43,310 nucleotides of DNA, from the NCBI GenBank assembly GCA_964605435.1, contig CAZSDE010000001.1:1-43310 (forward strand), given 5' to 3'. The position numbers and the translations under genes are program-made. Position 1 is the stretch's first letter. Each line of letters opens with the position of its first letter. Below the pieces are notes generated by a model. That model made no database searches. It was not told the DNA's origin and saw only the letters and a program-made list of their open reading frames with translations. This DNA comes from an uncultured Akkermansia sp. (lineage in GTDB: Bacteria; Verrucomicrobiota; Verrucomicrobiia; Verrucomicrobiales; V1-33). Shown here piece by piece: positions 17,029-35,250 of the stretch.

Positions 17029-18198
17029 TCAGCGGCCACCGCCCGCCGCCCGTTCCGCCCGCCGCTTCGCCAGCGCCGCTTCGTAATCCGCCTTCACCGT
17101 CCCCACAATCAATTCAGGCCCGTGCCACCGCTCCACATAGGCCCGACCCCGCCTCCCACGCTCGGCCAGCCATTCCCGGCTCTTCCCCAGAACTTCCCGC
17201 AGCACGGCCGTCACCGACTCCGGATCAGCCCGGATCACCGGAACCTCACCAGCCATCCCCTCGGGAAGATACCCCAGGTCCTCATCCCGCAGGTAACAGA
17301 CCACCGGCTTCCCCAGCGCCATCAGCTCGGCCGACAAACCCCCATACCAGCCACACAGCAGCTGATCAATCAGCAGATCCGCCGATTCATAAATCTTCCG
17401 CGCCTCCCGCTGCGGCATCCCCTCGACCCTCGTGTACGAAAACGAAAAACCTTCTCCACGCAGCACCTCCAGCGCCGCTTCAATATACCGTGTCCCCTTC
17501 ACCAGCGCATTGCTCGGCGCATGCACAATCCGCAGCGGCCGATCCGTCCCGGTCTCCACTCCCACAAAGGACCATTCCCTGATATCCGGCTGCGCATACG
17601 GAAAAAACCGGGTCCGCGCCGGCAGCACATGCATCAGATCCGGATTCAATGCATAAATGATGTCCGCATAGCGATCCCACACCGCAATCCTCTTCCGGAT
17701 CCCTTCGTCCTGCTCACGCCGACGGTACTCAGGCTCCACCTCGGTCGCATGCGTGAAACGGAAATGCTCCCGGCAGTAATTCCACTGCCGCGCATCATCC
17801 CCCTGCCACGTCACCGCAATCACCCTGCCAGCCCTCCGCAGCACCGGCAGATCCCGAAGCTCCGCCCGCGCCGCATACAGATTGTACACCCGCTTCAATC
17901 CCCGCAGCAGGGCACTCCGCTTCTGAAAAAGAAGCCGGTCCGGATGCGGCGTCAGCGAGGACCCGAAATTGAAATGCACCACATCATAGTCCCGGCAAGC
18001 CTCGCGCAGCAAAGACCACCTCCGCCACTCAGCCACCAGAAACCGCCAGCCCCCGCGCCGCACCACCTCATCCGCCACATACCCAAACGGCGGATCCCCG
18101 AAAACCACACTCCAGCTGTCCAGACCAGCCGCCCGCTCCATCCTCGCAAGCGCCTGCGGATGGCTTCCCACCGCGGTAGGACAATGCAGTACACGCAT
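17029..18198 (-). CDS. GT-B fold glycosyltransferase-like protein
   Basis: Start at ATG 18198 (MRVLHCP...). The C-terminal half (RIVHAPSN...KGT......YESADLLIDQL..GWYGGLSAELMALGKPVV) resembles the nucleotide-sugar binding domain of GT-B enzymes. Confidence 0.6.
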   Translation of the reverse strand: MRVLHCPTAVGSHPQALARMERAAGLDSWSVVFGDPPFGYVADEVVRRGGWRFLVAEWRRWSLLREACRDYDVVHFNFGSSLTPHPDRLLFQKRSALLRGLKRVYNLYAARAELRDLPVLRRAGRVIAVTWQGDDARQWNYCREHFRFTHATEVEPEYRRREQDEGIRKRIAVWDRYADIIYALNPDLMHVLPARTRFFPYAQPDIREWSFVGVETGTDRPLRIVHAPSNALVKGTRYIEAALEVLRGEGFSFSYTRVEGMPQREARKIYESADLLIDQLLCGWYGGLSAELMALGKPVVCYLRDEDLGYLPEGMAGEVPVIRADPESVTAVLREVLGKSREWLAERGRRGRAYVERWHGPELIVGTVKADYEAALAKRRAERAAGGGR

Positions 18199-18237
18199 GA
18201 TCAATCCAGATTTCGAAAGCCCATCACCCACCCCACC

Positions 18238-20106
18238 CTACAGCCCGAACCGCCGCATCATCCACTCGACATTGAGCAGCGACCAGATCAGCAGCCGCCG
18301 GTTCTCACGGCCGTCCAGATGCTCCTGCACCAGCGACAGAGCCGTTCCGCGGTCCAGCACCTGCCAGATGCGCGCATCTCCTCCCATCAGCTCTTTCCTC
18401 ACGTAGTCAATGCTCTCGCCCTTGAACCAAGCCGCATCCGGAGCCGAAAAGCCCTGCTTCTCCCCACCCGAAATCTCATCCGGCACATACCGCTTCATGA
18501 TCTCGCGCAGCGCCAGCTTCCCATCGCTCGTCCGCTGAAAATACCGCACCGCCTTGGCCCCAGTCTCGTTCTCGTTGATCCTCGTCACCTCGCCAAGGTT
18601 CCGCAGCTTCATCGCCACCGGCAGGCGCTGCGCAAAATCCACCAGATCATTGTCCAGAAACGGAACCCGCGTCTCCAGACTGTGCGCCATGCTCAGCTTG
18701 TCCTCCACCACCAGCAGACCATGCAGAAAAGTCTTCGCTTCAAAATACAGCGAGTGATTGATGTAATCCTCAGGCCGCCGCAGCTCACTCGCATGCGTCG
18801 CAAATACCCCGCGGAAAATATCCCGCGTGCTCACCCCACGCACCTTCTCCCACACCGGTCCAAAGAATGATGCCGTCAGCCGCGACGGAATCAGCCGCTG
18901 CCAGTAGCTGTAATACTTGTCGATGTAATCCTCGAATCCCGTATTCACCGCCGCACGGTAATACCGCCACGGATACCCACCGAACAATTCATCCCCGCCA
19001 GCACCGGAAAGACATACCTTCACAAACCGGCTCGCCAGATACGCCGCATAGAAATTCGGATAGCTCTGCCCCACCCGCGGCTCTTCCAGATGCCACGCAA
19101 ACCGCGGCATGATCCGCTCCATGTCCCCGCTCTTCAGCACCATCTCGTAATGCTCCGTCCGGAACAGATACGACATGTGCTCAGCCCGCGCCCGTTCATC
19201 AAAACTCAGCTCGATCCCCGATGCCGATCGAAGATCAAACCCGCACGTGAACGTCCGCAGCAAAGGTACCTGCTGCGCCGCCAGCGCACTGATCGACCCC
19301 GAATCCATCCCCCCGCTCAGATAGGATCCAATGTCCACATCACTCACCATCTGACGCGAAACCGCCTGACGGAACAGACGGTCAAGTTCCTCAATGGCCT
19401 CAGGCCCGCTCAGCGACGGGTCTTCCGTGAACTGAAAATCCCAGAACCTCCGCAGCACCGGTGCCGACCCCGCCCGCACCGTCAGCAGGCAGCCAGCCGG
19501 GAGTAGCTTCACCCCGCGGAACATGGTCCGGTCCGTGAAGAAATTCTGAAAGGTGAAGTACTCCAGCAACCCTTCCTCATCAAGAACCGCCCGCGCCGCA
19601 GGATGCGCCAGCACCGCCTTGATCTCGCTCCCGAACAGAAACACCCCGCCCCATTCCCCATAATACAACGGCTTCACCCCATAACGGTCCCTCGCCAGCA
19701 GCAGCGTTCCCTTCCGCCCATCCCATACCGCAAATCCAAACATCCCATTGAGCCGACCCACCACCGCTTCCCCCCACTCCACATACCCACGCAGCAGCAC
19801 CTCCGTATCACTCCGCGACCGGAAGACATGACCACAACGCTCCAGTTCATCCCGCAGCTCCCGGAAATTGTAGATCTCCCCATTGTACGAAAGCACCACC
19901 TGACCGTCCTCGGTCGCCATCGGCTGACTGCCCGCCTCCGTCAGATCAATGATCGCCAGCCGGCGGTGACCCAAGCCCACCGGCCCGCTCACCCACTGTC
20001 CCTCCCCATCCGGACCACGGTGAGCGATGGCATCAGTCATGCCACGCAAGGCGTCCCGGGAAGCGGGCGCACTATCATTATGAAGGATTCCTGCAATGCC
20101 GCACAT
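18238..20106 (-). CDS. asnB: asparagine synthase (glutamine-hydrolysing) family amidotransferase, paralog 2
   Basis: MCGIAG start, GATase-II domain, and the LSGGMDSGS PP-loop. Confidence 0.9.
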   Translation of the reverse strand: MCGIAGILHNDSAPASRDALRGMTDAIAHRGPDGEGQWVSGPVGLGHRRLAIIDLTEAGSQPMATEDGQVVLSYNGEIYNFRELRDELERCGHVFRSRSDTEVLLRGYVEWGEAVVGRLNGMFGFAVWDGRKGTLLLARDRYGVKPLYYGEWGGVFLFGSEIKAVLAHPAARAVLDEEGLLEYFTFQNFFTDRTMFRGVKLLPAGCLLTVRAGSAPVLRRFWDFQFTEDPSLSGPEAIEELDRLFRQAVSRQMVSDVDIGSYLSGGMDSGSISALAAQQVPLLRTFTCGFDLRSASGIELSFDERARAEHMSYLFRTEHYEMVLKSGDMERIMPRFAWHLEEPRVGQSYPNFYAAYLASRFVKVCLSGAGGDELFGGYPWRYYRAAVNTGFEDYIDKYYSYWQRLIPSRLTASFFGPVWEKVRGVSTRDIFRGVFATHASELRRPEDYINHSLYFEAKTFLHGLLVVEDKLSMAHSLETRVPFLDNDLVDFAQRLPVAMKLRNLGEVTRINENETGAKAVRYFQRTSDGKLALREIMKRYVPDEISGGEKQGFSAPDAAWFKGESIDYVRKELMGGDARIWQVLDRGTALSLVQEHLDGRENRRLLIWSLLNVEWMMRRFGL

Positions 20107-20136: not shown

Positions 20137-20994
20137 TCAGTTCCCGCCACACACCGTGGCCAGACCTTCCTCCACAGACACGGGAATCACCCCGGTCAGC
20201 TCCGTCATCTTCGCACAACTCGCCGCAATCCCGCCATCCAGCGGAACCTCGTGTTCCCCGAAAACAGGCTCGCGCCCAAGCAGCCGACCCGCCACCTCCG
20301 CAATCTCCCGGATCCCCGTCGCCTCAGGCCCGCAGACATTGAATGTCTCGGATCCCTCCGATCCAAGCCGCGCCAGCACCACCCGCACCACATCCCCCAC
20401 CAGTACCGGACTCAGACCCGGCATCCCATTCGCCCGCACAAGGACGGGCCTACCCTCCCGCACCCGCGACACAATGTCCGGTATCAGCCGGAATCCCTGC
20501 TGCCCCAGCCCATACGGACTGAAAATGCGCAGCAGATCGACCGCCAGTCTGCCTCGGAATTCACCCAGCAAGGCCTCGGCCGCCAGCTTCGTCTGCGCAT
20601 AATATCCAGTCCCCGCCAGCGCATGCGACTCGGTAATCACTTCCCGCGCAAATCCATACACGGACCCGGAGGAAGCATAGATCATCCGGCGGGCCCCGCA
20701 GCGCACCCCATGCACCGCCATGGCCACGGCACTGCCGCAGTTCACCGCCAGCAGCTCCCGGGCATGCTCCGGAAAACTGAGATTCGCCTGCGCCAGATGA
20801 ATGAGCACGTCCGCCACCGGCAGACCATCCGCCGGAAGGTTCCCAAGATCCATCGGCACAGCGGTAGCCCCCGCCGCTACCCGGCCCTCCCCACCCGGCC
20901 GCACCAGCACCGCCACGTCATGCCCCGCCGCCACCAGCGCAGGCACCAGATGCGACCCAATGAAACCTGTGCCGCCAGCAACAAGAATTCTCAT
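20137..20994 (-). CDS. NAD-dependent epimerase/dehydratase (extended SDR)
   Basis: MRILVAGGTGFIGSHL Rossmann motif and YAQTK catalytic YxxxK. Confidence 0.8.
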   Translation of the reverse strand: MRILVAGGTGFIGSHLVPALVAAGHDVAVLVRPGGEGRVAAGATAVPMDLGNLPADGLPVADVLIHLAQANLSFPEHARELLAVNCGSAVAMAVHGVRCGARRMIYASSGSVYGFAREVITESHALAGTGYYAQTKLAAEALLGEFRGRLAVDLLRIFSPYGLGQQGFRLIPDIVSRVREGRPVLVRANGMPGLSPVLVGDVVRVVLARLGSEGSETFNVCGPEATGIREIAEVAGRLLGREPVFGEHEVPLDGGIAASCAKMTELTGVIPVSVEEGLATVCGGN

Positions 20995-21038: not shown

Positions 21039-22025
21039 TCAGCTCCGCTGCTTGCGCGCCTCCAGCTCGGCAATGTAGCTCCGCCGCCAGTCAATGAGCC
21101 GCTGCATCCCATCCTCCAGCCCAATCGTCCACTGGAAACCCAGATCACGCTCGGCCGCCTCCGTCGAACCAATCCGGTTGGTCACAAACGTCAGCCCGGC
21201 CGGCAGATACTCGATCTCGGCCTCCTTCCCGGAAAGCCGGATCAGCAGTTCGGTCAGTTCCTTGATGCTCGTCCCGATGCCCCGGCCCACATTATAGCTC
21301 TTGCCGGTCGCCTCGGACTTCATCGCACAGATGTTGGCCCGCGCCACATCCTCCACCGCCACGAAATCATACTGCTGCGACCCATCCCCGTAAACCTGCG
21401 GCCGCCCGCCCGACTCCAGACGGTCGAGAATCTTGTGCATCACAGCAATGTACGCCCCTTTGTAATCCTGCCGCGGACCATACACATTCATGTACCGCAA
21501 CCCCACCCACGGAAGCTGATACCGCTTCCCCAGCGACAGAAACATGTGCTCGCCCGCAATCTTCGTCGCCCCATAGAAGGTGTCGTTGTTGTACGGATGC
21601 TCCTCCGTCATCGGAATCTCCACGGCATTCCCATACACCGAAGCCGACGACGAATACACCACCCGCTGCACCTTGCTCCGGATCGCCGCCATGATCACGT
21701 TGAACGTCCCCTCCACATTCACACGGAACGCACTCTCCGGGAATTCATGACAGTGCAGCAGCCACAGCGCCGCCAGATGAAATACCCCGTCAATCCCCTC
21801 CATCGCCTTCTCCAGAATGTCCCGCTGCGTGATGTCCCCCCCAATCTCAAAGACCCGGCACCGCGGATCCTTGAGCGCTTCCCGCAGGTTGTCCTCCCGT
21901 CCACGCGTGAAATTGTCGTAAATCAGAACCTCCTTCACCGGTTCCTTCAGAAGCTGATCGACCACATGCGACCCAATCAGGCCAGCACCGCCAATCACCA
22001 GTATGCGTTTTCCATTGAGATCCAT
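21039..22025 (-). CDS. NAD-dependent nucleotide-sugar epimerase/dehydratase (extended SDR)
   Basis: ILVIGGAGLIGSH Rossmann motif and YGATK YxxxK. 328 aa, GalE/WbpP-like length. Confidence 0.8.
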   Translation of the reverse strand: MDLNGKRILVIGGAGLIGSHVVDQLLKEPVKEVLIYDNFTRGREDNLREALKDPRCRVFEIGGDITQRDILEKAMEGIDGVFHLAALWLLHCHEFPESAFRVNVEGTFNVIMAAIRSKVQRVVYSSSASVYGNAVEIPMTEEHPYNNDTFYGATKIAGEHMFLSLGKRYQLPWVGLRYMNVYGPRQDYKGAYIAVMHKILDRLESGGRPQVYGDGSQQYDFVAVEDVARANICAMKSEATGKSYNVGRGIGTSIKELTELLIRLSGKEAEIEYLPAGLTFVTNRIGSTEAAERDLGFQWTIGLEDGMQRLIDWRRSYIAELEARKQRS

Positions 22026-22093: not shown

Positions 22094-23293
22094 TCAGCCC
22101 GCCTGCGCGCTGATGAGCGAAACCAGGTACCGGCCAATCGCGAGCGAAGCAGTGGCTCCCGGCGACGGCGCATTGAGAAGATGCAGCTGCCCAGGAACCT
22201 GACTGATCGTGAAATCCATGAGCAGAGAACCATCGCGGTGAATGGCCTGCGCGCGCACCCCGCTGCCTCCCTCCGGAGCCAGATCATCCATCGTGATCTC
22301 CGGGATAAGCCGCTGCAGATTGCGCAGAAAGACCTCCCGGCTGAAAGAGTTCCGCAGCTCGGCCCACGTGGTCCCCGGATAGTTCTTCACAAACCGGTAG
22401 AGCCCGGGAAAGGTCAGGCTCTCCCACGTGTCGCGCAGCGAAAAGTCGGTCCGGCGATATCCTTCACGCCGGAACGCCAGCACCGCATTCGGCCCCGCTT
22501 CAATCCCGCCACCAATCATCCTCGTGAAATGCACACCCAGAAACGGCAGGGTCGGATCCGGCACCGGATAAATCAGATGCCGCACCAGCCGCTCACCCCG
22601 CGCAGACAGCTTCCAGTAGTCCCCCCGGAACGGCACAATCCGGCAGTCAGGCCGCAAGCCCGCACTGCGCGCCACCCGGTCGCACTGCAGCCCCGCACAG
22701 TTCACCACATAATCCCCACGGAAATCACCAGCCGTACTGTGCACAATCTGCCCGCCACCATCAGTCGTGACTCCGCTCACCGCGGCCCCCGTCCGTACCT
22801 CATGACCCGCAGCCTCCAGCCTCCGCACCATCGCCCGCATCACCGCCGGGTAGTCGACAATCCCTTCCTCGGGAACCTGCAGCGCAGCCACCCCACGCGC
22901 ATGCGGCTCAATCCCGCGGAGCTGTTCCTGATCCAGCCACCGCAGCCCACGCAGCCCATTGGCGGTCCCGCGCTCGAGCAGGGCCCGCAGCCTCACGGCT
23001 TCGGCCTCATCCACAGCCAGGACAATCTTCCCGCAGATCTCATAGGGAACCTGCTCCTCCGCACAGAAGGCAGTCATCTCCCGGATCCCCTCAACCGCCA
23101 GCCGCGCCTTGAGCGAACCCGGCTGATAGTACAAACCACAGTGCAGGACCCCGGAATTGTGACTGCTCTGATGCTGGCCAGCCGCGGACTCCTTCTCAAG
23201 AACCGTGATCCGTTCCGCGAGCCTCGCCTCAGCCGCACGCACGGCCGTGGCCAGCCCAACGATTCCCCCTCCGATGATGATGAGATGCTTCAT
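22094..23293 (-). CDS. lhgO: L-2-hydroxyglutarate oxidase/dehydrogenase (FAD-dependent)
   Basis: IIGGGIVGLATA FAD fold followed by blocks I recognise from E. coli LhgO/YgaF: LEKES..HQSSHNSGVLH.GLYY.PGSLKA, HLIYPVPDP.LPFLGVH.TRMI, GPNAVLAFRREGY, NAPSPGATAS. Its ATG overlaps the upstream stop (ATGA at 23290-23293). Confidence 0.85.
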   Translation of the reverse strand: MKHLIIIGGGIVGLATAVRAAEARLAERITVLEKESAAGQHQSSHNSGVLHCGLYYQPGSLKARLAVEGIREMTAFCAEEQVPYEICGKIVLAVDEAEAVRLRALLERGTANGLRGLRWLDQEQLRGIEPHARGVAALQVPEEGIVDYPAVMRAMVRRLEAAGHEVRTGAAVSGVTTDGGGQIVHSTAGDFRGDYVVNCAGLQCDRVARSAGLRPDCRIVPFRGDYWKLSARGERLVRHLIYPVPDPTLPFLGVHFTRMIGGGIEAGPNAVLAFRREGYRRTDFSLRDTWESLTFPGLYRFVKNYPGTTWAELRNSFSREVFLRNLQRLIPEITMDDLAPEGGSGVRAQAIHRDGSLLMDFTISQVPGQLHLLNAPSPGATASLAIGRYLVSLISAQAG

Positions 23294-24114
23294 GGCTGCT
23301 CTTTCTTCCGAACCAACGTTCCCAGCGCCGCCGCCAGCCGCGCCCCGGATTCGGCCGCGAGATGCACCGAATCCGTATACACCAGCTGCCGATCCAGCGT
23401 CGGCTTCAGATCAAGCAGCGGAATCCCCGCCGCAGCACTGACCTGCCGCGCGATGCGGTACTCCCGCTCCCGCTCGCGCCCCTGATCGGGCAGCATCACC
23501 AGAATTACCCGCGCTCCCAGCATCCGGATCCGCACCACCCGCTCCAGCAGAGCCGCCGCAATCGGATCATTCCCGCCATCCGCCACAGCGACCTCCATGC
23601 CCGGCAACTCCACGGCTCCTCCCCCATCCTCGCCCGACTTCACCCGGCTATGCAGCCGCGAATAAATCAGATCCACAGGCCGCTCCCGATACCGCAGCAA
23701 GGGTACAGCTTCCCGGATCCGATGACCCATCCCCCCAGCCGCCGCGGCGACGGCACGCGCATTCTCCGGCGCCACCGACCCCGCCGCATTCACCTCCACA
23801 AAAACCGTGAGCGGCCGCAGTCCCGACTCCAGCAGAAAATCCAGAGCCTCGACCGGTCCACAGCCATCCAATCCAAGATTCACAAAGGGCACCCCAGCCG
23901 CCGCGGCCGCCGCCCCGGCATCAAGCCGCCCGGTCATGCTCGACCCCGCCAGCACATGACCGGGCCTCGTCTCGGCCCGCAGATCGCTGATCCGGATGCA
24001 GTTCGTGATGATATTGGAAGTCGAAAGCTCCACTTTCCGCCCCGGCACAGTGACCCCCACGGCATGCACCGCCAGCAGCCCCGCCGTCACCATCAGCTCA
24101 TGTGGCATCCTCAT
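23290..24114 (-). CDS. SGNH/GDSL-like hypothetical protein, probable partner of the adjacent MBOAT
   Basis: N-terminal hydrophobic anchor (LMVTAGLLAVHAVGV), a GSS block early and a C-terminal DSVH (DxxH) block as in SGNH hydrolases. It begins 4 nt after the MBOAT stop. Start taken at ATG 24114. Confidence 0.55.
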   Translation of the reverse strand: MRMPHELMVTAGLLAVHAVGVTVPGRKVELSTSNIITNCIRISDLRAETRPGHVLAGSSMTGRLDAGAAAAAAGVPFVNLGLDGCGPVEALDFLLESGLRPLTVFVEVNAAGSVAPENARAVAAAAGGMGHRIREAVPLLRYRERPVDLIYSRLHSRVKSGEDGGGAVELPGMEVAVADGGNDPIAAALLERVVRIRMLGARVILVMLPDQGREREREYRIARQVSAAAGIPLLDLKPTLDRQLVYTDSVHLAAESGARLAAALGTLVRKKEQP

Positions 24115-24118
24115 CGGC

Positions 24119-25582
24119 TCAGAACTGAAAATAGATGAAGGATCCACCCACCCCGGCATTCACCAGCGTCAAATACAGCATCAGCCCGAACACCACCGGT
24201 TCAGCCACACGCCGCCACCGCGCCCCGCCCGCCACCACCGGCCGGAAATATCCCCACAGATGATAGAGCACGACCGGCAGGCCATACACCACCACAAGGA
24301 AAGTCGCCCGACCCCGCATTCCCATGGGCGCATCCCGCAGCGCCCCCAGATACCTCTGGAGCGATTCCAGATCAGGCATCGCAAACAACAGCCACACAAG
24401 GGACACCAGATGAAAGGTCAGGATGATCCTCCCGAATTGCCGCCACGACCGCTGCACCGCGGAACTCTCGCCGGCCTGCACCCCAAGGAGCCGCTCCACT
24501 GCCAGCAGCACACCATGCGCCGCGCCCCACAGCGCAAACCGCCACGCCGCCCCATGCCACAGACCACCCAGCAGCATCACCAGAAACAGATTGAAATAGG
24601 TCCGGCCTGATCCCTTCCGGTTCCCACCCAGCGGAAAATAAAGATAGTCACGCAGCCAGTTGCTCAGCGATATGTGCCACCGCCGCCAGAACTCGGTCAC
24701 AGAGGCCGACACATACGGATAATTGAAGTTCACCGGCAGCCGGTACCCGCACAAGGCCGCCAGCCCGAGCGCAATCAGCGAATACCCCGCGAAATCCGCG
24801 AAGATCCGGAAGGAATACCCATAAAGCATCCCCACCAGATCCAGCTTCTTCATCCACAGCACATTCGTCGTCCCAATGAGATCGGTGTGCTCCCGCAGAT
24901 TGTCGGCCACCACCATCTTCAGAAAAAATCCCGTGATCAGATAACGCAGCGCCACCCGCCACGGAATGTCCCGCAACTCCCGCGGCCCAATCTGCGGAAG
25001 AAACTCCCGCGCCTTCATGATCGGTCCCGCCACCAGCTGTGGAAAGAAGTTGATGTACAAGGCCAGCTTGCCCAGTGGCCGCAGCAGCCCCCGGCCAGCC
25101 AGTTCTTCCACAAACGGCAACAGCTTCGGCTCGCTCCCGCCCGCCCGCGACAGATCCACGAGGAACGAGATTGCGTGAAACGTATAGAAGGAAATCCCCA
25201 CAGGCAGCGGAATGGCATGAAGCGATGCCCTCAGCTCCGCCCGCCCCTCCCCGGGAAACAAAAGCTCGCCAAGCAGGCCGGCATACTTGAAGGCCGCCAG
25301 CAGTACCAGATTCGCCGCGACCCCAAACGCCAGCAGCCCCCGCGGAACAGATCCGCCATCCGCCAGCTTCCGAGCCATGGCCCGCCCGACCCCGAAATTG
25401 AAAAGAATACTCCCGCACAGCAGAATCAGCAGCTTCGGATCATCCCACGCATAAAAGACAAAACTCGCCACCGCGAGCACGCCCCACTGCCACGCCCCCA
25501 GCACCCGGGCCACCGGCGGCAGCCAGTACAACCCAAGGACCACCGCCAGAAAGACGGCAAATTCGACGGAATTGAAAAGCAT
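24119..25582 (-). CDS. MBOAT family membrane-bound O-acyltransferase (AlgI/DltB-like)
   Basis: MLFNSVEFAVFLAVVL opening typical of AlgI/DltB, polytopic, with WRRWHISLS..L+DY.Y..LGG and GLWHGA blocks carrying the conserved His. Confidence 0.9.
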   Translation of the reverse strand: MLFNSVEFAVFLAVVLGLYWLPPVARVLGAWQWGVLAVASFVFYAWDDPKLLILLCGSILFNFGVGRAMARKLADGGSVPRGLLAFGVAANLVLLAAFKYAGLLGELLFPGEGRAELRASLHAIPLPVGISFYTFHAISFLVDLSRAGGSEPKLLPFVEELAGRGLLRPLGKLALYINFFPQLVAGPIMKAREFLPQIGPRELRDIPWRVALRYLITGFFLKMVVADNLREHTDLIGTTNVLWMKKLDLVGMLYGYSFRIFADFAGYSLIALGLAALCGYRLPVNFNYPYVSASVTEFWRRWHISLSNWLRDYLYFPLGGNRKGSGRTYFNLFLVMLLGGLWHGAAWRFALWGAAHGVLLAVERLLGVQAGESSAVQRSWRQFGRIILTFHLVSLVWLLFAMPDLESLQRYLGALRDAPMGMRGRATFLVVVYGLPVVLYHLWGYFRPVVAGGARWRRVAEPVVFGLMLYLTLVNAGVGGSFIYFQF

Positions 25583-25645: not shown

Positions 25646-26833
25646 TCACAGCCACCCCGCAATCGCCGCAATGACCGCTTCGCGCTGCTCAACCGTCAGC
25701 TCGGGGAAAATCGGAATGCTGATGACTTCGGAGGCCAGCCGATGCGCGGTGGCACAGCCGGATCGCGCAAAGTCACTCGTGTACGCAAAGCATTCCTGCT
25801 GATCCATGGTCACCGGATAGTAGATCTCACAGCCGATCCCGCTCTTCGTGAGATGCTCGCGGAAGGCGTCACGCCGGCCTTCCCCGATGATCCGCAGGGT
25901 ATACTGATTCCAGATGTGCTCGTTGTGGGCATACGCCACCGGCAGCACGATCTTCGCACCGGTCTCCCGCAGCCACGCATCCTGAGCTTCGCGGCACTTG
26001 CAGTGCGATGGATCAGCCGTCACCACCCCGGGCAATTCCGCAAGCACCGCACTGTAATGCGCAGCATTGGCCTGCCGCTTCACCGTGTAATCCCCATACC
26101 GGGCCAGCTTCACCCGCAGCAGGGCCGCCTGCAGATGGTCCAGCCGGAAATTCCCGCCCACGAACTTGTGATAGTACTTTGGCTTGGACCCATGCGTCCG
26201 CAGCAGCCTCGCCCGCTCCGCCAAGCCATCATCCTGACACACCAGTAGCCCGCCATCCCCAAAGCCACCAAGATTCTTCGACGGGAAAAAACTGTACGTC
26301 CCGAAGTCCCCGATCGATCCCACCGGACGCCCGCGGTACTTCGCTCCAATCGCCTGCGCCCCATCCTCAATGACCGCCAGCCCATGCGACTTCGCCAGCC
26401 CCATGACCGCATCCATGTCGGCGGACTGGCCGAACAGATGCACCGGAATGATCGCTTTGGTCCTTTCCGTTACCTTTCCCGCGGCACTGGCCGCGTCGAC
26501 ATTGAAGCACACCGGACAGGCATCCACAAACACCGGCGTCGCCCCCACCCGCGTAACGCAGCCAGCCGTCGCAAAGAAGGTAAACGTCGGCACCAGAACC
26601 TCGTCGCCCGGTCCAATCCCCAGCGCCATGAGCGCCAGCAGAATCGCATCCGTCCCGGAGGAACAGCCAATCCCATGCTTCGCCTCCACCATGGCCGCAC
26701 ATTCCCGCTCCAGCGCTTCCACCTCGGGTCCCATGATGAACTGACCGCTCCGCAGCACACCAGTGAAGGCTGCCGTCAGCTCGGCCTCGAGCGGAAGGTT
26801 CTGAGCATTGACATCAAGAAGCGGTACTTTCAC
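25646..26833 (-). CDS. DegT/DnrJ/EryC1-family PLP sugar aminotransferase (WbpE/WlbC-like)
   Basis: GQFIMGPEV, SSGTDAILLAL and SFFPSKNLGGFGDGG (PLP lysine block). GTG start at 26833 gives (M)KVPLLDV. Confidence 0.85.
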   Translation of the reverse strand: MKVPLLDVNAQNLPLEAELTAAFTGVLRSGQFIMGPEVEALERECAAMVEAKHGIGCSSGTDAILLALMALGIGPGDEVLVPTFTFFATAGCVTRVGATPVFVDACPVCFNVDAASAAGKVTERTKAIIPVHLFGQSADMDAVMGLAKSHGLAVIEDGAQAIGAKYRGRPVGSIGDFGTYSFFPSKNLGGFGDGGLLVCQDDGLAERARLLRTHGSKPKYYHKFVGGNFRLDHLQAALLRVKLARYGDYTVKRQANAAHYSAVLAELPGVVTADPSHCKCREAQDAWLRETGAKIVLPVAYAHNEHIWNQYTLRIIGEGRRDAFREHLTKSGIGCEIYYPVTMDQQECFAYTSDFARSGCATAHRLASEVISIPIFPELTVEQREAVIAAIAGWL

Positions 26834-26878
26834 GGCAGTGGAATGGTCAGGGATGTTTTACAGGGAAGAAAGGGCCAG

Positions 26879-27529
26879 TCAGCGGGCCGCCGACTTGAAT
26901 TCGTCGTATGAAAGTGTTCCCGCCGCAAGCTCGGGGGGCAGGGGATCGTCTTCCCCAAGGGTGAGACACCGGACCACGCCGTCCCGCAGTTCATAGACAA
27001 AGCCCGATTCCGGACAACGGGCCTGCCCGTCCGACCCGAACTGCAGCCGATGCCCATGCCGGCTCATCCATCCACTCAGCCGCCCCGGCACTCCCATCAC
27101 GAAACCATAGTCGGGCACGTCCTTGGCCACCACCGCCCCGGCCGCCACAAAGCTGTACCGCCCCAGGGTGATCCCGCATACAATGGTCGCATTCGCTCCC
27201 ACGGTCGTCCCCCGCCGGATCAGGGTCCTTTCATAAAGACTGTGCCGCTTCACCTGACTCCTCGGGTTGGTGACATTGGTAAGCACACACGAAGGCCCAA
27301 GGAAGACGTCGTCCTCCACCACGGTCCCGGTGTAGATGGCCACATTGTTCTGCACCTTCACATTGGAACCAATCACGACGTCGTTCGCCACCATCGTGTT
27401 CTGACCAAAGATGCAGTTCTCCCCGATGCGGGCTCCAGGACAGATGTGCGCAAAATGCCAGATCTTCGTCCCCTCGCCAATGGTGACCGGAGCATCGATG
27501 ACGGCAGTCGGATGGGCATAGTATGGCAT
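26879..27529 (-). CDS. wbpD: left-handed beta-helix N-acetyltransferase, WbpD/WlbB-like (UDP-2-acetamido-3-amino-2,3-dideoxy-glucuronate N-acetyltransferase)
   Basis: MPYYAHPTAVID...IWHFAHI..GARIG...NPRS...GANATIVCG...GVPGR..GWMS..G..L is collinear with the WbpD/WlbB sequences I recall, including the distinctive C-terminal tail. ATG at 27529. Confidence 0.8.
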   Translation of the reverse strand: MPYYAHPTAVIDAPVTIGEGTKIWHFAHICPGARIGENCIFGQNTMVANDVVIGSNVKVQNNVAIYTGTVVEDDVFLGPSCVLTNVTNPRSQVKRHSLYERTLIRRGTTVGANATIVCGITLGRYSFVAAGAVVAKDVPDYGFVMGVPGRLSGWMSRHGHRLQFGSDGQARCPESGFVYELRDGVVRCLTLGEDDPLPPELAAGTLSYDEFKSAAR

Positions 27530-27542
27530 GGCTGAGAGAAAT

Positions 27543-29180
27543 TCAGGGACCAATGATTCGAAACAACCGCAGATCCGAGGAGGATCCAGCCTCCGCAAGG
27601 GCGTCGGCGGGCAAGCCCAGATGCAAGCCTACCGTGGCCGCAGGAAACCCAGAGGGCACCGCCACGACCACCCGGCCAGACGGCAACCGGTCCCGCAGCC
27701 CAGCCACCAGGGGCCGCAACTGCCCGGAATCAGCCGCTCCAGTGACACACCGGTCCAGTTCCCACGGTGCCGTCACACTCATGGCATGCCAACCAACGAG
27801 GATGTCTCCGGAAGTGGTTGCCGACTGCAGAAAATCCCGGTGATCCCGCAGCCATGCATGCGTCTTCCCCCGGTTCTCAATGCCCCGCGCCGCCAGTTCC
27901 GGAAGAGACAGGGCGACCGCCTGCTTGACCACGGTCCTCACCAAAGAGGACCCGGACACCTCACTGGTCACCGGCAACGCCGACACTTGCTCCACCGGAC
28001 CCTGAAAACCAGGCTCGAGACGGTCCAGCAGGGGACTCGTCACCATGCGGTCAGGCAGCAAGTCTTCCCCAGCCACGGCCAGCCCGGTCAGCATGGCCAC
28101 ACCCGCCGCCATGCCGGTCCGCAGCATTCTTCCACCCGCCATCCACACAGCCAGAAATGCCAGCGCGAGAAATGGCACAAAGAGCCGCCCATGGAAAATA
28201 TGCGTCGGTACCCCGGTCTCCCCACTGAGCCCCACCGAGAAACCCACAGCTGTCAGCAGCAGCGCCAGCAGCGCCACGGCCTGCTCGCGCGACATCATCT
28301 CCCGCACCCTCCCGCGCACCCACCACGCCAGCGGGACCACCACCAGCCCGCCCGCCACCAGAAACCGCACAACACCGAAGAACAGGGAGCCCGCCATCCC
28401 CCGGATCCCCGGCAGAACCCGCAGCCGGATCCGGTCTGCCAAACCCGCGCCAGGCACCGTCAGGACCGCCGGATCCCGCAGCACCCAGAGCTGCAGCACC
28501 AGCAGCACCAGCAACCCAGCCGCAAGGCCCGCCGCACAGCCGGCCAGCCACCAGCGCAGCCCCAGCGGCCACGGTCCACGCCAGCCAACCACGAGACCCC
28601 GCGAAATCAGCAGCGCTGGCATCACGAAAAATGCCACCCAGTGACACCATGCTCCCGCCAGACCAGCACCCAGTCCCCAGCCGAGCGCCGCCCGACGGGT
28701 CCACGGCCCACTCAGCACGCAGGATGCCGACCACAGCATTCCCGTCATCACAGCCACCGTGAAGATGTGAGGAAAGGCCATCGTCCCCGTCAGCCAGGAA
28801 GCCGGACTCAGCAGCACAAAGCCAACGGCCGGCCAGCCCCGTCCCCAGCCCAGCCGCCGACACAGACCATGCATGAACCATCCGCCCGCGAGCAGAATCA
28901 CCGCATTCCACAGCTGCACCGCCAGCGCATAGGAAAGTCCGGCCTTCCCCAGCAACCCCAGCCCGAACGCATATCCCGGTGGCCAGCTGCCGTACGCCAT
29001 CACCGCATCAGGATGCTGCAGACGATCCATCGAAATCAGACAGCGCCAGCCACCAGCCACCGACTCCGCAAAGCAGGGATAGAATTCGATATCGATCTCA
29101 TTCCGCGGAAACCGGGCGAACACCACGGCACTCAGCACGGCCACCGCGGCCAGCAGCATCCATGAAGGCAATGATTTCAT
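27543..29180 (-). CDS. GT-C-like (ArnT/PMT-like) polytopic membrane protein with a ~170-aa C-terminal soluble domain
   Basis: Start at ATG 29180 (MKSLPSWMLLAAVAVL), forming an ATGA overlap with the upstream stop. About 11-12 TM helices and a PPGYAFGL loop reminiscent of GT39/GT83. Family call is tentative. Confidence 0.5.
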   Translation of the reverse strand: MKSLPSWMLLAAVAVLSAVVFARFPRNEIDIEFYPCFAESVAGGWRCLISMDRLQHPDAVMAYGSWPPGYAFGLGLLGKAGLSYALAVQLWNAVILLAGGWFMHGLCRRLGWGRGWPAVGFVLLSPASWLTGTMAFPHIFTVAVMTGMLWSASCVLSGPWTRRAALGWGLGAGLAGAWCHWVAFFVMPALLISRGLVVGWRGPWPLGLRWWLAGCAAGLAAGLLVLLVLQLWVLRDPAVLTVPGAGLADRIRLRVLPGIRGMAGSLFFGVVRFLVAGGLVVVPLAWWVRGRVREMMSREQAVALLALLLTAVGFSVGLSGETGVPTHIFHGRLFVPFLALAFLAVWMAGGRMLRTGMAAGVAMLTGLAVAGEDLLPDRMVTSPLLDRLEPGFQGPVEQVSALPVTSEVSGSSLVRTVVKQAVALSLPELAARGIENRGKTHAWLRDHRDFLQSATTSGDILVGWHAMSVTAPWELDRCVTGAADSGQLRPLVAGLRDRLPSGRVVVAVPSGFPAATVGLHLGLPADALAEAGSSSDLRLFRIIGP

Positions 29181-30235
29181 GGCCTCGACTCCATCACCCG
29201 CCGGCACCACCGCAGCAGCGGCTTCTCCACCAGCAGACTGGCCACCACCCCGGCAGCCAGCGAAAGCAAACCCACCACCACCGTCACCGGCAGCGCCCAC
29301 CCCGACGCGCGCCCAGACCAGTGCCCCGCATTCATGAACAGCCATTCCTGCACTGGCATGTGCACAAGGTACACCCCATACGAACAGGACCCCAGCAAGC
29401 CCAGCCATCCCGGCACCGTCTGACCCTGCTGCTCCCACCCGACCAGCCCAGCCACCATCAGTGACGCCGCCAATCCATGAAGCAGCCAGCGCCACGAACC
29501 CGCCGCCGCCCCATGACGGACTTCCAGCCAGCCTCCCGCCGCCAGCAGCAGCATGCCACCCGCCAGAACCCAGCGCGCCCGGCCACGAAACCATCCCCTC
29601 CCCACAAGGACCGCCACCCCCACCCCGGCCAGAAACTCCAGCGAACGCAGCGACAGCATCTGCTGCAGCCATGGCGACCGCAGCCCCGCTCCACTCCATG
29701 CCGACCCGATTGCCAGCAGCCCCAGCACAATCCACACGGCCCAGCCAAGCCTCCGCTGCACCAGAAAGGGAATGAACAGAAGATAGAACATCACTTCAAA
29801 TCGCAGCGTCCACGCCACCCCCAGCAGCGGATCCCTCTCCCCCGGCAGCAGCAGCAGACTGCTCACCGCCTCACCCCACCCAAATCCCTCCATCCCATTC
29901 GCCTTTCTCAGCAGATAATGCGCCGGGAAATACAGCGCACAGACCACCCAGTAAAAAGGATAGATCCGGCAGAAGCGCCGCACCGCATAATTCCAGATGT
30001 CCCCGCCGCCGCATCCCTCCCGCGGATTGGTCCACGCCATCAGAAACCCACTCAGCACAAAGAATACATCCACCCCCAGCTGCCCAGCCAGCGACACATT
30101 GCCCAGAAACGTCTTCCCATAATGCCACGGCAGACTGGCCATGCCAAAAGCATGATGAATGACCACTCCCAGCGCCGCGATGCCCCGCAGCGCCTCAAGA
30201 CTCCGCAGCACCGGCCTCCGCAGCGCGGAATTCAT
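29177..30235 (-). CDS. acyltransferase family 3 (AT3/OafA-like) membrane O-acyltransferase
   Basis: SLEALRGIAALGVVIHH opening diagnostic of AT3 proteins, about 10 TM helices. ATGA overlaps with neighbours at both ends. Confidence 0.85.
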   Translation of the reverse strand: MNSALRRPVLRSLEALRGIAALGVVIHHAFGMASLPWHYGKTFLGNVSLAGQLGVDVFFVLSGFLMAWTNPREGCGGGDIWNYAVRRFCRIYPFYWVVCALYFPAHYLLRKANGMEGFGWGEAVSSLLLLPGERDPLLGVAWTLRFEVMFYLLFIPFLVQRRLGWAVWIVLGLLAIGSAWSGAGLRSPWLQQMLSLRSLEFLAGVGVAVLVGRGWFRGRARWVLAGGMLLLAAGGWLEVRHGAAAGSWRWLLHGLAASLMVAGLVGWEQQGQTVPGWLGLLGSCSYGVYLVHMPVQEWLFMNAGHWSGRASGWALPVTVVVGLLSLAAGVVASLLVEKPLLRWCRRVMESRP

Positions 30236-31176
30236 CGGCTCCCGCCCGCCCGCTCAAGAATCCGTACGACTTCCAACCCGTTCCTCCCGCACGACCGCGG
30301 CACGCCCCGGCTCTCGACACATTCCAGAAAATGCCTCAGTTCCGCCTCGAGGGCCTGATGCCCGGCCGGAGCCGTAAAAAGCACTTCCGTGCCGCCATCC
30401 ACATTCGCCAGAGCCCGGTCGATCGTCTTCCGCACCAGCGTCACGGTCTCGCTCTTCTCATCATAACAAAGCATCCCGCGCTCCCCGATGATCCGCAGCC
30501 CCCGCCGGTCCTCCGGCCACAGCCACGAATTATGCAGATGCGCCACCGCCCCATCCGCAAAGGTCAGATGCAGATAGGTGTCATCCTCGATCCCAGCCTG
30601 CAATCCACAGTGACCACTGAAACTCACGCCCGTCACCACCGACCCCGCCAGATGCAGCAGGGCGGCCACATCATGAACCCCCAGACTCCACAGCGCATTC
30701 TCCACCGCCCTCGCCTTGCCATGCTTCATCCGTTCCTGATGAAAGGTGAAGACCCGGCCAAGCTGCCCCGCGGCAAGGTACTCCTTCAGAAAAATCACGG
30801 CCGGCTTGTACAGCAGCAGATGCCCGGTCATAAGAATCCTCCCGCCGCGCTCCGCCGCTTCCACAAGGTCCTCCGCTTCCACCGAGGTCAGCGCGATCGG
30901 CTTCTCCACAAAGACGTCCTTGCCAGCCAGCAGACAGGTCTTCGCTACCCGGTGATGCGTCGGAGCCGGGGTCGCCACAGCCACACTCCCCACCGTGCCA
31001 TCACCCAGCAGTTCCCCATAGTCAGCAAGTACCGTGACCCCCGGAAAATCCCCGGCAAGCATCCCGCGAACCTTCGGGTCGGCTTCCACCACGGAATGAA
31101 GGGCCCCCATGCCATGCAGGGTCTTGACAATATTGCGACCCCACGGGCCGGCTCCGATGACAGCGGTCTTCTTCAC
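30232..31176 (-). CDS. Gfo/Idh/MocA-family NAD-dependent oxidoreductase (WbpB/WlbA-like 3-dehydrogenase by context)
   Basis: (M)KKTAVIGAGPWG Rossmann start and VFVEKP motif. The role assignment rests on co-occurrence with WbpA/E/D-like genes. GTG start at 31176. Confidence 0.65.
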   Translation of the reverse strand: MKKTAVIGAGPWGRNIVKTLHGMGALHSVVEADPKVRGMLAGDFPGVTVLADYGELLGDGTVGSVAVATPAPTHHRVAKTCLLAGKDVFVEKPIALTSVEAEDLVEAAERGGRILMTGHLLLYKPAVIFLKEYLAAGQLGRVFTFHQERMKHGKARAVENALWSLGVHDVAALLHLAGSVVTGVSFSGHCGLQAGIEDDTYLHLTFADGAVAHLHNSWLWPEDRRGLRIIGERGMLCYDEKSETVTLVRKTIDRALANVDGGTEVLFTAPAGHQALEAELRHFLECVESRGVPRSCGRNGLEVVRILERAGGSR

Positions 31177-31940: not shown

Positions 31941-33257
31941 TCAGGCTTTGGTCACCTGTCCAGGAGACGTGCGCACCTTCGCCATGGCATTGCGCGTGTC
32001 CACAATGCACGGAGCCCACGCCGCCAGTTCCTCGAGATCCACCGCCGCATGATGCGTGGAAATCAGCACCAGATCAAACGAACCCACCGTTTCCCGGTCC
32101 CACGCAATGCTCTTCATGCCAGTGTACTCAGCATGCTCCCGCGTCGGAGTAACCACCGGAATGTGCGGATCGTGATACGCAATCTCCGCACCCTGCGCCT
32201 TCAGCAGATCAAAGAGATGGAAGGTCGGACTCTCCCGCATGTCATCGACATTCGCCTTGTACGCCAGCCCCATCACCAGAATCCGGCTGCCGTTGAGGGC
32301 CTTGCGGTCCCGGTTAAGCCGCTCCGCCACCCTCCTCACCACATAGCCAGGCATCCCCTCATTGATCTCCCCAGCCAGCTCAATGAAGCGGGTGTGAATT
32401 CCGAACTCCCGCGCCTTCCACGTGAGATAGAAGGGATCAATCGGAATGCAGTGCCCGCCCAGACCCGGCCCGGGGTAGAAAGCCGTGAACCCAAACGGCT
32501 TAGTCTTCGCGGCGTCAATCACTTCCCAGATGTCGATGCCCATGGCGTCGGCCACGGTCTTCATCTCGTTCACAAGTCCAATGTTCACTGCCCGGAAAAT
32601 GTTCTCCAGTAGCTTCACCATCTCAGCCACCCGCGTCGAAGTCACCGGCACCACCTTTCCGTAAATCGCCCCATACACCGCCACCCCCTGCTCAAGACAG
32701 GCGGCTGTGTGCCCGCCCACCACCTTCGGAATCCCTGTGCCGTGAAACTCAGGATTGCCCGGATCCTCACGCTCCGGCGAGAAGACAAGGAAGTAGTCCT
32801 TCCCCAGCGTAAAGCCCCGGCCCTCGATCTGCCCGAGAAATTCCTCCTCGGTAGTTCCCGGATACGTCGTGCTCTCCAGACACACCAGCTGCCCAGCCCG
32901 CAGATGCGGCAGAATGGTGTCACGCGTGGCCCGCACATAGCTCAGGTCCGGCTCATGATGACGGTCCAGCGGCGTCGGCACACAGATGATGATCACATCC
33001 ACTTCCGGAATCCGCGCGAAATCAGAGGTCGCACTGAGCAGTCCCGCCTGCACCGACGATCCCACCCGCCCGGCACTGATGTGCTGAATGTAACTGGTCC
33101 CCGCATTGAGCGCGTCCACTTTCCGCTGGTCCACATCGAATCCAATCACCCGGATTCCCTTCTCCGCAAAGCCCAGCACCAGCGGCAGCCCTACATAGCC
33201 AAGACCAAGAACGCCGATCACCGCAGTGCCGGCCGACAGTTTTTCTTTGGGTGTCAT
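31941..33257 (-). CDS. UDP-N-acetyl-D-hexosamine 6-dehydrogenase (WbpA/WecC/TviB-like nucleotide-sugar dehydrogenase)
   Basis: VIGVLGLGYVGLPL NAD fold, a GGHCIP catalytic Cys block, and 438 aa length typical of the UDP-GlcNAc/ManNAc dehydrogenase subgroup. Confidence 0.85.
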   Translation of the reverse strand: MTPKEKLSAGTAVIGVLGLGYVGLPLVLGFAEKGIRVIGFDVDQRKVDALNAGTSYIQHISAGRVGSSVQAGLLSATSDFARIPEVDVIIICVPTPLDRHHEPDLSYVRATRDTILPHLRAGQLVCLESTTYPGTTEEEFLGQIEGRGFTLGKDYFLVFSPEREDPGNPEFHGTGIPKVVGGHTAACLEQGVAVYGAIYGKVVPVTSTRVAEMVKLLENIFRAVNIGLVNEMKTVADAMGIDIWEVIDAAKTKPFGFTAFYPGPGLGGHCIPIDPFYLTWKAREFGIHTRFIELAGEINEGMPGYVVRRVAERLNRDRKALNGSRILVMGLAYKANVDDMRESPTFHLFDLLKAQGAEIAYHDPHIPVVTPTREHAEYTGMKSIAWDRETVGSFDLVLISTHHAAVDLEELAAWAPCIVDTRNAMAKVRTSPGQVTKA

Positions 33258-34679: not shown

Positions 34680-35219
34680 TCAGAAAACGGCCTCACGCGG
34701 ATTCCGCTCGTTCAGTACAGAAAGAATCGACATCTCCACCTCATGCTGGTTCCCAAGGAACTCCAGCAGCACCCGCACCCGCTGCGCCCCCGGCAGCACC
34801 CGCGTCACCTTCGCCTCCTGCCCACGCAGCGGTCCCTCCACCACTTCCACCACCTCCCCAGCCTCAATCGTCAGCGGCACCGTGATACTGTCCTTCTCAT
34901 CCACCACTTCACGCAAATCCCGGATCACCGCATCAGGCACCGCCCCGAAATCCTCCATGAAGGTCAGTACCTGCGAAACAAAGGGCGTCGCCTGCACATG
35001 CCGCACCCCCTCAGGCCGGAACCGCGCAAACAAATACCCCGGAAACAAAGCCTCCACATACCATACCTTCCCACGCACCGTCTTCTTCTGATGCCGCAGC
35101 CGCGGACAGAATGCCTCGTACCCAGCGGCCGCCAGATGCTGCGCCGCCAGATGCTCCCCCTTCGGCTTGCCGCGGATGCAGCGCCACCGAAGGTCGTCTG
35201 GTTGTGTTTGTGTTGCCAT
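34680..35219 (-). CDS. NusG-paralog transcription antiterminator (RfaH/UpxY/LoaP-like)
   Basis: NGN-like W.C....PK.E..A...L...G.E.F.P......K...GK.......LFPGYLFARF and a KOW motif GEVVEVVEGPLRGQEAKVTRV. First gene of the glycan operon. ATG at 35219 (alternative GTG at 35249). Confidence 0.8.
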   Translation of the reverse strand: MATQTQPDDLRWRCIRGKPKGEHLAAQHLAAAGYEAFCPRLRHQKKTVRGKVWYVEALFPGYLFARFRPEGVRHVQATPFVSQVLTFMEDFGAVPDAVIRDLREVVDEKDSITVPLTIEAGEVVEVVEGPLRGQEAKVTRVLPGAQRVRVLLEFLGNQHEVEMSILSVLNERNPREAVF

Positions 35220-35250
35220 GAGTTCGGGTAAATTCCTCTGCGCTCCCACC

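Follow-up and report, generated by a model that had tools for sequence, protein, structure and literature searches.

A glycan-operon L-2-hydroxyglutarate oxidase in Verrucomicrobiota and its possible partner among sugar-nucleotide dehydrogenases

Introduction

Why should a gene for L-2-hydroxyglutarate (L-2-HG) oxidase, lhgO, lie in the middle of a polysaccharide operon? The question is raised by a contig of an uncultured Akkermansia sp. of the Verrucomicrobiota (GenBank assembly GCA_964605435.1, contig CAZSDE010000001.1, positions 1 to 43,310; this whole stretch is referred to as the window), nearly all of whose genes are on the minus strand, with lhgO (22094-23293) inside a long one-strand glycan operon. 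An original prediction, made from the sequence of the window, saw the oxidase as a salvage enzyme returning the 2-hydroxyglutarate (2-HG) left by a WbpB-like sugar-nucleotide dehydrogenase to alpha-ketoglutarate (alpha-KG). We find the salvage logic to be biochemically sound and the arrangement recurrent by synteny, but the WbpB-like partner is probably wrong. Synteny favours instead the gene downstream of lhgO, which encodes an extended short-chain dehydrogenase/reductase (SDR), here SDR328, and the chances appear about even that LhgO is kept in the operon as an L-2-HG recycling step with SDR328 as its partner dehydrogenase. The argument turns on four genes.

22094..23293, minus strand: LhgO, flavin adenine dinucleotide (FAD)-dependent L-2-HG dehydrogenase/oxidase of 399 amino acids with an ATG start (NF008726, Pfam DAO, PDB 8W75)
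21039..22025, minus strand: SDR328, extended SDR, GalE/WbpP-like, beginning 68 nucleotides downstream of LhgO (Pfam Epimerase, 180 bits)
20137..20994, minus strand: SDR285, second extended SDR (Pfam Epimerase, 87 bits; best PDB match MoeE5, 1.5e-18, the PDB matches assigning no function)
18238..20106, minus strand: AsnB622, glutamine-dependent amidotransferase of the asparagine-synthase family (Asn_synthase and GATase domains), probably forming a uronamide or amidino group

Results and discussion

An LhgO with an intact substrate site

The NCBIfam equivalog model NF008726, 'L-2-hydroxyglutarate oxidase', matched the protein with 499.9 bits against a cutoff of 299, the alignment covering protein residues 4-391 and positions 3-388 of the 389 in the model. 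Pfam DAO (PF01266) scored 208.7 bits, and the N-terminus (MKHLIIIGGGIVGLA) carries the GxGxxG motif of a DAO-type FAD-binding fold. The closest solved structure is Drosophila L2HGDH (PDB 8W75; 304 bits, end-to-end alignment), in which 2-oxoglutarate (2-OG) or L-2-HG is bound by S88, H92, Y289, L299, H302 and R393, and for which D-2-HG is not a substrate (PMC10726252). All six residues are present in LhgO (S47, H51, Y242, L252, H255 and R347) and are invariant across 165 homologs taken from the fetched loci; between them they contact the two carboxylates of 2-OG and its C2 oxygen, R347 serving the C5 carboxylate. Judged by homology, 22094-23293 encodes a true LhgO with its L-2-HG site intact.

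The ATG of lhgO (23293-23291) overlaps the TGA (23292-23290) of the upstream open reading frame as ATGA, and no terminator-like site was found between lhgO and either neighbour. Escherichia coli LhgO (YgaF) and eukaryotic L2HGDH belong to the same family by the equivalog hidden Markov model, with the same FAD fold and substrate-binding residues; the window gene differs in its genomic role: its surroundings are neither csiD-lhgO-gabDTP nor those of glutarate/lysine catabolism, but a polysaccharide operon within which it is translationally coupled. Operon-embedded and free-standing copies show no divergence in sequence in the LhgO tree. The protein by itself is an ordinary LhgO, and the unusual part is its operon context. 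The original prediction of an LhgO/YgaF-type FAD oxidase, overlapping the preceding gene at 23290-23293 and not a stray insertion, is thus borne out, the last point by the conserved place of lhgO in the operon and by its recurrent embedding in nucleotide-sugar operons, described below.

LhgO and SDR328 in related loci

We fetched the contexts of LhgO homologs at 63-91% identity and mapped the window proteins onto each (fetched loci are numbered with the prefix L). The window gene order recurs in related contigs from metagenomes and metagenome-assembled genomes (LhgO 63-97% identical), and lhgO adjacency is not, as the original prediction had allowed that it might be, confined to this genome. 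This arrangement, termed type 1, was present in nine lineages (the window, L001, L002, L003, L006, L007, L168, L169 and L171). In all nine an SDR328 ortholog comes next downstream of LhgO (63-91% identical), the sole insertions between the two being a methyltransferase gene (L002, L003) and an MmeI restriction-modification gene (L007). SDR328 is 84-98% identical among these loci, compared with 63-91% for LhgO and 39-93% for neighbouring genes. The L007 insertion (Verrucomicrobiaceae, L007:11275-14325), an MmeI-family type IIL gene, stands exactly between LhgO and the SDR328 ortholog, which indicates that the pair is separable without loss of either gene.

What follows SDR328 varies. A second SDR is found there in the window, L001, L002, L003, L007 and L171 (SDR285 orthologs at 39-79% identity in the five related loci), and a DegT aminotransferase in L006, L168 and L169, the closest solved relatives of which are C4 aminotransferases (perosamine synthetase, 8e-79; ArnB, 2e-76). 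AsnB comes next in either case, and in related loci it always follows an SDR pair or SDR-DegT, Bacteroidota included. Two Bacteroidota loci (L172, L173) carry the triad SDR328-DegT(C4)-AsnB, with SDR328 75-79% identical, so that a C4-type aminotransferase directly follows SDR328 in five lineages (L006, L168, L169, L172, L173), as far as gene order goes. An aminotransferase of C4 type alternating in the slot after SDR328 suggests that SDR328 releases a 4-keto sugar.

SDR328 has the Ser/Tyr/Lys of an extended SDR in the motifs SSSASVYG...YGATK, a pattern that we take from established motif knowledge to be GalE-like as opposed to RmlB-like, and it has no TDE dehydratase motif. A 4,6-dehydratase, which would need no oxidant, was considered and rejected on these two grounds. 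Without the TDE acid/base of 4,6-dehydratases, an oxidation by SDR328 would be net and would need an oxidant.

SDR328 orthologs of Verrucomicrobiota share 73-80% identity with those of Bacteroidota or Lentisphaerae (L172:1224-9268; L173:10001-14050). So high a level across phyla is out of the ordinary for an 'epimerase', pointing to either horizontal transfer or a strong constraint.

SDR genes downstream of LhgO in a wider sample

Beyond the close relatives, at least 160 further LhgO loci were collected in one GTDB and one metagenome scan (49-74% identity, mostly Verrucomicrobiota and Acidobacteriota). The metagenome scan is a scattered sample at 49-63% identity, not one of close relatives, and serves as background only. 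By Pfam, PF01370 'Epimerase' was the top family of immediate downstream neighbours (18 of 127 loci; 4 for the next family). Sixteen of the 18 were identified locally, all 16 on the LhgO strand. Sugar-nucleotide families led among the upstream neighbours as well, with lower counts (Epimerase 5, NTP_transferase 4, DegT 3, PGM/PMM 3). When positions were counted by homology to six SDR seed proteins, extended SDRs occupied +1 in 17 of 134 loci, against a background of 2.3% per gene at the other positions of these loci (binomial p ~1e-8), and -1 in 3 of 141 (Fisher p 8e-4 for the comparison with +1); these statistics ignore relatedness among loci. The SDRs at +1 belong to three subfamilies unrelated to each other, and their operons have three architectures, type 1 and the following two.

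Type 2 (L104, L117, L118, L133, L139): NTP-transferase, LhgO, SDR331, (DegT), RmlC-like epimerase, SDR303
Type 3 (L022, L047, L048, L052, L064, L066, L085; L109 in different order): LhgO, SDR310, NTP-transferase (in L047 a GHMP kinase is next)

LhgO is thus recurrently embedded in nucleotide-sugar operons. Type 2 LhgOs form a clade of their own (examples are L133:9154-13633 and L118:1505-7494; the optional DegT has 470 amino acids), and type 3 loci are dispersed over the LhgO tree and over phyla.

Adjacency to Cj1427 orthologs

The type 3 SDR310 is an ortholog of Cj1427 (PDB 6VO6, E 5.5e-109), the GDP-D-glycero-D-manno-heptose C4-dehydrogenase of Campylobacter jejuni. In the published account (PMC10680097), Cj1427 is described as a C4-dehydrogenase with tightly bound NADH that is not displaced by NAD+, and as re-oxidising this NADH with alpha-KG to give L-2-HG. 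Within 10 kb flanks, Cj1427 orthologs (51-58% identity, E 1e-116 to 1e-139) adjoin LhgO in all seven loci listed first for type 3. At least two phyla are represented, the titles of the records giving Verrucomicrobiota, Gemmatimonadota and further taxa that may be mislabelled. The best solved relative of the adjacent type 2 SDR is also Cj1427 (1.2e-23), and since an RmlC-like epimerase and a further SDR come next, the type 2 gene order mirrors the C. jejuni trio of dehydrogenase, epimerase and reductase (Cj1427/Cj1430/Cj1428). Type 2 looks, from its genes, like a pathway in the style of this trio with a built-in LhgO. We know of no LhgO in the C. jejuni capsule locus and of no recycling enzyme assigned to Cj1427.

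A reverse sample was made of seven plasmids with Cj1427 orthologs, three genera of which were checked for a nearby LhgO; one of the three had it. Plasmid pDMC1 of Solidesulfovibrio magneticus (58.7 kb) carries a Cj1427 ortholog (65% identity) and a PGAP-annotated lhgO ~5 kb apart in a one-strand cluster, and this lhgO, 34% identical to the window LhgO, is of a distant lineage.

The L047 cluster (L047:1029-13047) and that of pDMC1 (L174, pDMC1 24676-39596) share a kinase (GHMP in L047), a split transketolase-like E1 pair, a DegT protein and a radical SAM protein (B12-binding in L047). L047 has in addition a D-2-hydroxyacid dehydrogenase, and its cluster adjoins a flagellin gene. The shared set suggests a conserved branched or aminated heptose pathway, possibly for flagellin glycosylation.

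A possible L-2-HG recycling step

Taken with the Cj1427 chemistry, these arrangements are consistent with the following scheme. A nucleotide-sugar dehydrogenase of the operon would hold NAD(H) tightly and regenerate NAD+ by reducing alpha-KG to L-2-HG, in a ping-pong reaction by analogy with Cj1427, and LhgO would return L-2-HG to alpha-KG, passing the electrons to quinone or O2. SDR328 would most likely be this dehydrogenase, its substrate being the UDP-diacetamido-uronic acid that enzymes encoded upstream would supply and its net reaction an oxidation at C4. In the window SDR285 would reduce the resulting 4-keto sugar, with net inversion at C4; in the sister loci the C4 aminotransferase would transaminate it; and AsnB would then amidate the product. 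The residue so predicted would be of 2,3-diacetamido-galacturonamide type in the window and a 2,3,4-triamino uronamide in L006, L168 and L169. Three parts of this scheme are inferred: net dehydrogenation by SDR328 (from gene order), its use of alpha-KG and the formation of L-2-HG as by-product. The prediction is strongest for LhgO paired with a true Cj1427 ortholog, as in L047 of type 3 or on pDMC1.

The likeness between SDR328 and Cj1427 lies in both being extended SDRs, SDR328 too preceding putative consumers of a 4-keto sugar, and in Cj1427 making the enantiomer that the window LhgO should oxidise. They differ in that SDR328 is GalE/WbpP-like and 26% identical to Cj1427, and in its presumed substrate, a UDP-diacetamido-uronic acid and not a GDP-heptose. 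A wider proposal, which we put forward tentatively and with some doubt, is that the SDR328 family (73-98% conserved across Verrucomicrobiota, Bacteroidota and Lentisphaerae) consists of ping-pong C4-dehydrogenases, so far unrecognised, that depend on alpha-KG and act on UDP-(di)acetamido-hexuronic acids; an adjacent lhgO would then be a general genomic marker of ping-pong sugar-nucleotide dehydrogenases. Their products would feed C4 aminotransferases or reductases toward 2,3,4-triamino- or galacto-configured uronamides, and in Verrucomicrobiota the operon would encode a complete loop: glutamine to glutamate (AsnB), glutamate to alpha-KG (DegT), alpha-KG to L-2-HG (SDR) and L-2-HG back to alpha-KG (LhgO).

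It appears that in such operons a repair or catabolic enzyme has been taken over to recycle, as its dedicated task, a cosubstrate of sugar-nucleotide oxidation. Two cases of NAD(H)-holding sugar-nucleotide dehydrogenases that use alpha-KG as oxidant are known to us, WbpB (releasing D-2-HG) and Cj1427 (releasing L-2-HG). Enzymes of this kind are hard to spot from sequence, and when purified they seem inactive as long as alpha-KG is missing. Should a neighbouring lhgO mark them, it would be a simple genomic flag with which to find more. L-2-HG inhibits alpha-KG-dependent enzymes, and the scheme, if true, would account for how cells avoid its build-up during heavy glycan synthesis and would predict that 4-amino and 4-epimeric uronic acids can be reached by a new route, through oxidation at C4. 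A literature search for lhgO linked to polysaccharide, O-antigen or heptose clusters found no relevant paper.

Evidence against the pairing and a housekeeping alternative

Several observations weigh against SDR328 as the partner. Its nearest PDB entries are 4-epimerases (6DNT, 5e-41; WbpP, 3e-32), and its match to Cj1427 (26% identity over 254 amino acids, E 4e-9) does not amount to orthology. The SDR328 sequence resembles that of an ordinary UDP-HexNAc(A) 4-epimerase, and such an enzyme would work without an external oxidant. No LhgO was present in the fetched flanks of the two Bacteroidota loci (10 kb on each side for L173, 1.2 kb upstream for L172), nor within 20 kb of the Cj1427 orthologs on two Azospirillum plasmids and a Sinorhizobium plasmid. 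In the LhgO tree all of type 1 falls in one clade, hence the nine loci are not independent events. Close relatives of LhgO (L005, L170; 71-72% identical) adjoin recBCD, outside glycan clusters, and ~75-85% of the sampled homologs have no sugar gene as neighbour.

The last three points also speak for the alternative that survives best, namely that LhgO is a housekeeping enzyme of metabolite repair or catabolism which lies in the operon by inherited synteny, with no specific glycan link, its L-2-HG coming from promiscuous malate or lactate dehydrogenases or from lysine/glutarate catabolism. The LhgO protein is unremarkable and fully conserved, as such a role would have it. In the GTDB scan the window-type operon occurred, among the 80 best matches, in one representative genome only (L008, the same region as L003), and no second LhgO of that genome was among these 80 (at least 54% identity), so that the operon copy may be its only one. 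We nevertheless regard this alternative as rather unlikely. The adjacency persists through reshuffled surroundings over 63-91% LhgO identity, with LhgO translationally coupled to its sugar-gene neighbours or a few nucleotides away from them; SDRs of three subfamilies stand at +1 in three architectures, far above background; one of these subfamilies is the sole SDR known to make L-2-HG; and on the 58.7 kb plasmid pDMC1 a distant LhgO lineage, too, shares a cluster with a Cj1427 ortholog.

The GFO enzyme and the WbpB proposal

The salvage scheme first proposed for the window concerns four genes further upstream in the operon.

31941..33257, minus strand: UDP-sugar 6-dehydrogenase, WbpA-like (UDPG_MGDP_dh N, central and C domains; TIGR03026, 418.6 bits)
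30232..31176, minus strand: GFO/IDH/MocA oxidoreductase, here GFO (GFO_IDH_MocA N and C domains)
26879..27598, minus strand: hexapeptide-repeat N-acetyltransferase, WbpD-like role (Hexapep, 87.9 bits; NeuD/PglB/VioB subfamily, 97 bits)
25646..26833, minus strand: DegT aminotransferase, C3 type, WbpE-like (PF01041, 369.8 bits)

In this scheme the GFO 3-dehydrogenase would re-oxidise its NADH with alpha-KG from the WbpE-like aminotransferase, and LhgO would recycle the 2-HG. All four genes are in the operon, the hexapeptide transferase ~2.6 kb and the C3-type DegT ~3.4 kb downstream of the GFO, with an acyltransferase gene and a gene of unknown function between GFO and hexapeptide transferase. 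The nearest PDB entries to the window DegT are the C3 aminotransferases DesV, QdtB and WbpE (8e-73), and DegT directly precedes LhgO in L003, L006 and L171. Such chemistry has precedent. Pseudomonas aeruginosa WbpB has tightly bound NADH and reduces 2-ketoglutarate to D-2-HG (Xiao et al. 2021, PMC8651671), which is recycled by D2HGDH (PA0317), a PA0317 mutant making less O-antigen (PMC8651671). The alpha-KG ping-pong mechanism is established for this enzyme and for Thermus thermophilus WlbA, but only some WbpB/WlbA enzymes use alpha-KG, those of Bordetella pertussis and Chromobacterium violaceum having sequential mechanisms without it (PMC10622841).

The GFO of the window, however, appears to be a different enzyme. 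The PAO1 WbpB sequence used for comparison agrees with PDB 3OA2, with no mismatch over all 316 residues. With BLASTP the window GFO shares 27% identity with WbpB over 71 amino acids (E 0.002), which leaves it outside the WbpB/WlbA class. Its nearest PDB entry is 3C1A, 3OA2 and 3O9Z being absent from its 56 PDB matches at E<1e-5, and its best NCBIfam match is an archaeal UDP-GlcNAc 3-dehydrogenase (127 bits, under the cutoff). The GFO is probably a sugar-nucleotide 3-dehydrogenase outside the alpha-KG-using class of WbpB, and homology hence offers no ground to expect alpha-KG use by it. If it did behave like WbpB it would make D-2-HG, the wrong enantiomer for an LhgO with an L-specific site, and this is a case in which the original prediction itself was to fail. 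Attractive as the idea is, an L-specific oxidase is thus probably wrongly paired with an enzyme of WbpB type, a class of which the characterised member forms D-2-HG; WbpB was rejected as partner for this reason (PMC8651671) and for the negligible similarity of the window GFO to it.

Synteny points the same way. The triad of GFO, hexapeptide transferase and C3-type DegT is present in most type 1 loci, but not in all. L169, from the NusG-like head through LhgO to +10 kb, has no GFO, hexapeptide transferase or 6-dehydrogenase, but retains LhgO-SDR-DegT(C4)-AsnB, and the GFO of L007 is a different one at a distance of 8 kb. It is thus the SDR that LhgO tracks, not a WbpB-like gene. In type 2, L133 and L139 have neither DegT nor GFO. 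While the GFO is a possible source of L-2-HG, it is less likely than SDR328, and we consider the GFO-based loop improbable. Of the WbpA/B/D/E-like set first read in the operon, the 6-dehydrogenase, the hexapeptide transferase and the C3-type DegT stand, and the WbpB-like member does not; nor does synteny tie lhgO to the GFO and DegT genes.

The P. aeruginosa system is the closest described one by logic, as Cj1427 is by chemistry: a sugar-nucleotide dehydrogenase reduces alpha-KG to 2-HG and a flavoenzyme restores alpha-KG. It differs in the D enantiomer, in a D2HGDH unrelated to the DAO-family LhgO and in a WbpB-class GFO unlike that of the window. PA0317 is presumably far from the wbp O-antigen cluster and shares no operon with it. 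Its publication means that salvage of 2-HG from WbpB, of which no description was known when the window was first read, had already been reported, with D-2-HG and D2HGDH (PMC8651671).

A third possibility, that the LhgO-like protein uses another substrate of the glycan pathway, such as a sugar-linked or free 2-hydroxy acid serving as N-acyl substituent, draws on the varied substrates of DAO-family relatives (the type 2 glycerol-3-phosphate oxidase model scores 117 bits on LhgO) and on the existence of 2-hydroxyglutarate-containing O-antigens, but it is very improbable given the six invariant 2-OG-binding residues, R347 included, a full-length equivalog score far over the cutoff and the lack of sequence divergence between operon and free-standing copies.

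Other features of the operon

The remaining genes of the operon, from its head downward, are as follows.

34680..35249, minus strand: NusG-like paralog at the operon head (NusG and KOW domains; same head position in L003 and L169)
33298-34542, minus strand: Glf
31206-31925, minus strand: methyltransferase
29177-30235, minus strand: acyltransferase-3
27543-29165, minus strand: 540-amino-acid protein without a family match
24119..25582, minus strand: MBOAT O-acyltransferase (PF03062, 98.7 bits; DltB-like, 151 bits, under its cutoff)
23290..24159, minus strand: plausibly SGNH-like partner of the MBOAT protein, by motif blocks (true start probably near 24114)
17029..18231, minus strand: conserved 400-amino-acid protein without a Pfam match
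15560-16996, minus strand: flippase (Pfam)
14370-15626, minus strand: GT4 glycosyltransferase (Pfam)
12439-14355, minus strand: second AsnB (Pfam)
10772-12367, minus strand: Wzy-like polymerase (Pfam)

The gene preceding lhgO had been called SGNH-like. Its 289-amino-acid reading frame (23290-24159) has no Pfam or NCBIfam match, but it shows the blocks GSS, GLDG, N and DSVH in order, kept in the L168 homolog, and lies beside the MBOAT gene; the label is plausible at the level of motifs. The frame is absent from L003, L006 and L171, the loci in which DegT directly precedes LhgO.

Compared with L003 and L171, the window has two added modules, MBOAT with the SGNH-like gene (23290-25582; also in L001 and L168) and acyltransferase-3 with the 540-amino-acid protein (27543-30235; also in L001). 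Both probably add O-acyl decorations. Homologs of the 400-amino-acid protein follow AsnB in L001 and L171 and are weakly detectable in L169, and unannotated genes of 367-431 amino acids are also present, directly after AsnB in L002, L003 and L168 but at a greater distance downstream in L006. The set of flippase, GT4 glycosyltransferase, second AsnB and Wzy-like polymerase is also found in L001.

The sugar genes resemble those of Bordetella wbm-type O-antigen loci, which direct 2,3-diacetamido- and 2,3,4-triamino-uronamide sugars. The window and its sister loci share with them the triad of GFO, DegT and acetyltransferase, several extended SDRs, AsnB amidotransferases, formyltransferases and a WbmS-like protein, and WbmF and WbmG (2PZJ, 2PZK) are among the PDB matches of SDR328. 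We know of no LhgO in the Bordetella wbm locus.

The NusG-like gene at the operon head probably provides operon-specific antitermination, as with UpxY or RfaH. Upstream of it are a MarR-like gene (35251-35769) and then a sigma-70 region 2 gene (35854-36561). A 600-amino-acid SASA-domain protein, sialate O-acetylesterase-like, is encoded at 37644-39446 by one of the few plus-strand reading frames, with a GntR/periplasmic-binding regulator on one side and the regulatory genes of the operon on the other.

Downstream, at 4664-9611 and on the same strand as the operon, lie genes for a class II fructose-bisphosphate aldolase, an FGGY kinase, an Fe-alcohol dehydrogenase, an IspD/MobA-like cytidylyltransferase and a CDP-alcohol phosphatidyltransferase, which may form a module making and transferring a CDP-activated polyol or alcohol phosphate. 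Every 1 kb bin of the window (1-43310) has a negative GC skew, which, together with the near-uniform minus-strand genes, is consistent with a single replichore and co-directional transcription.

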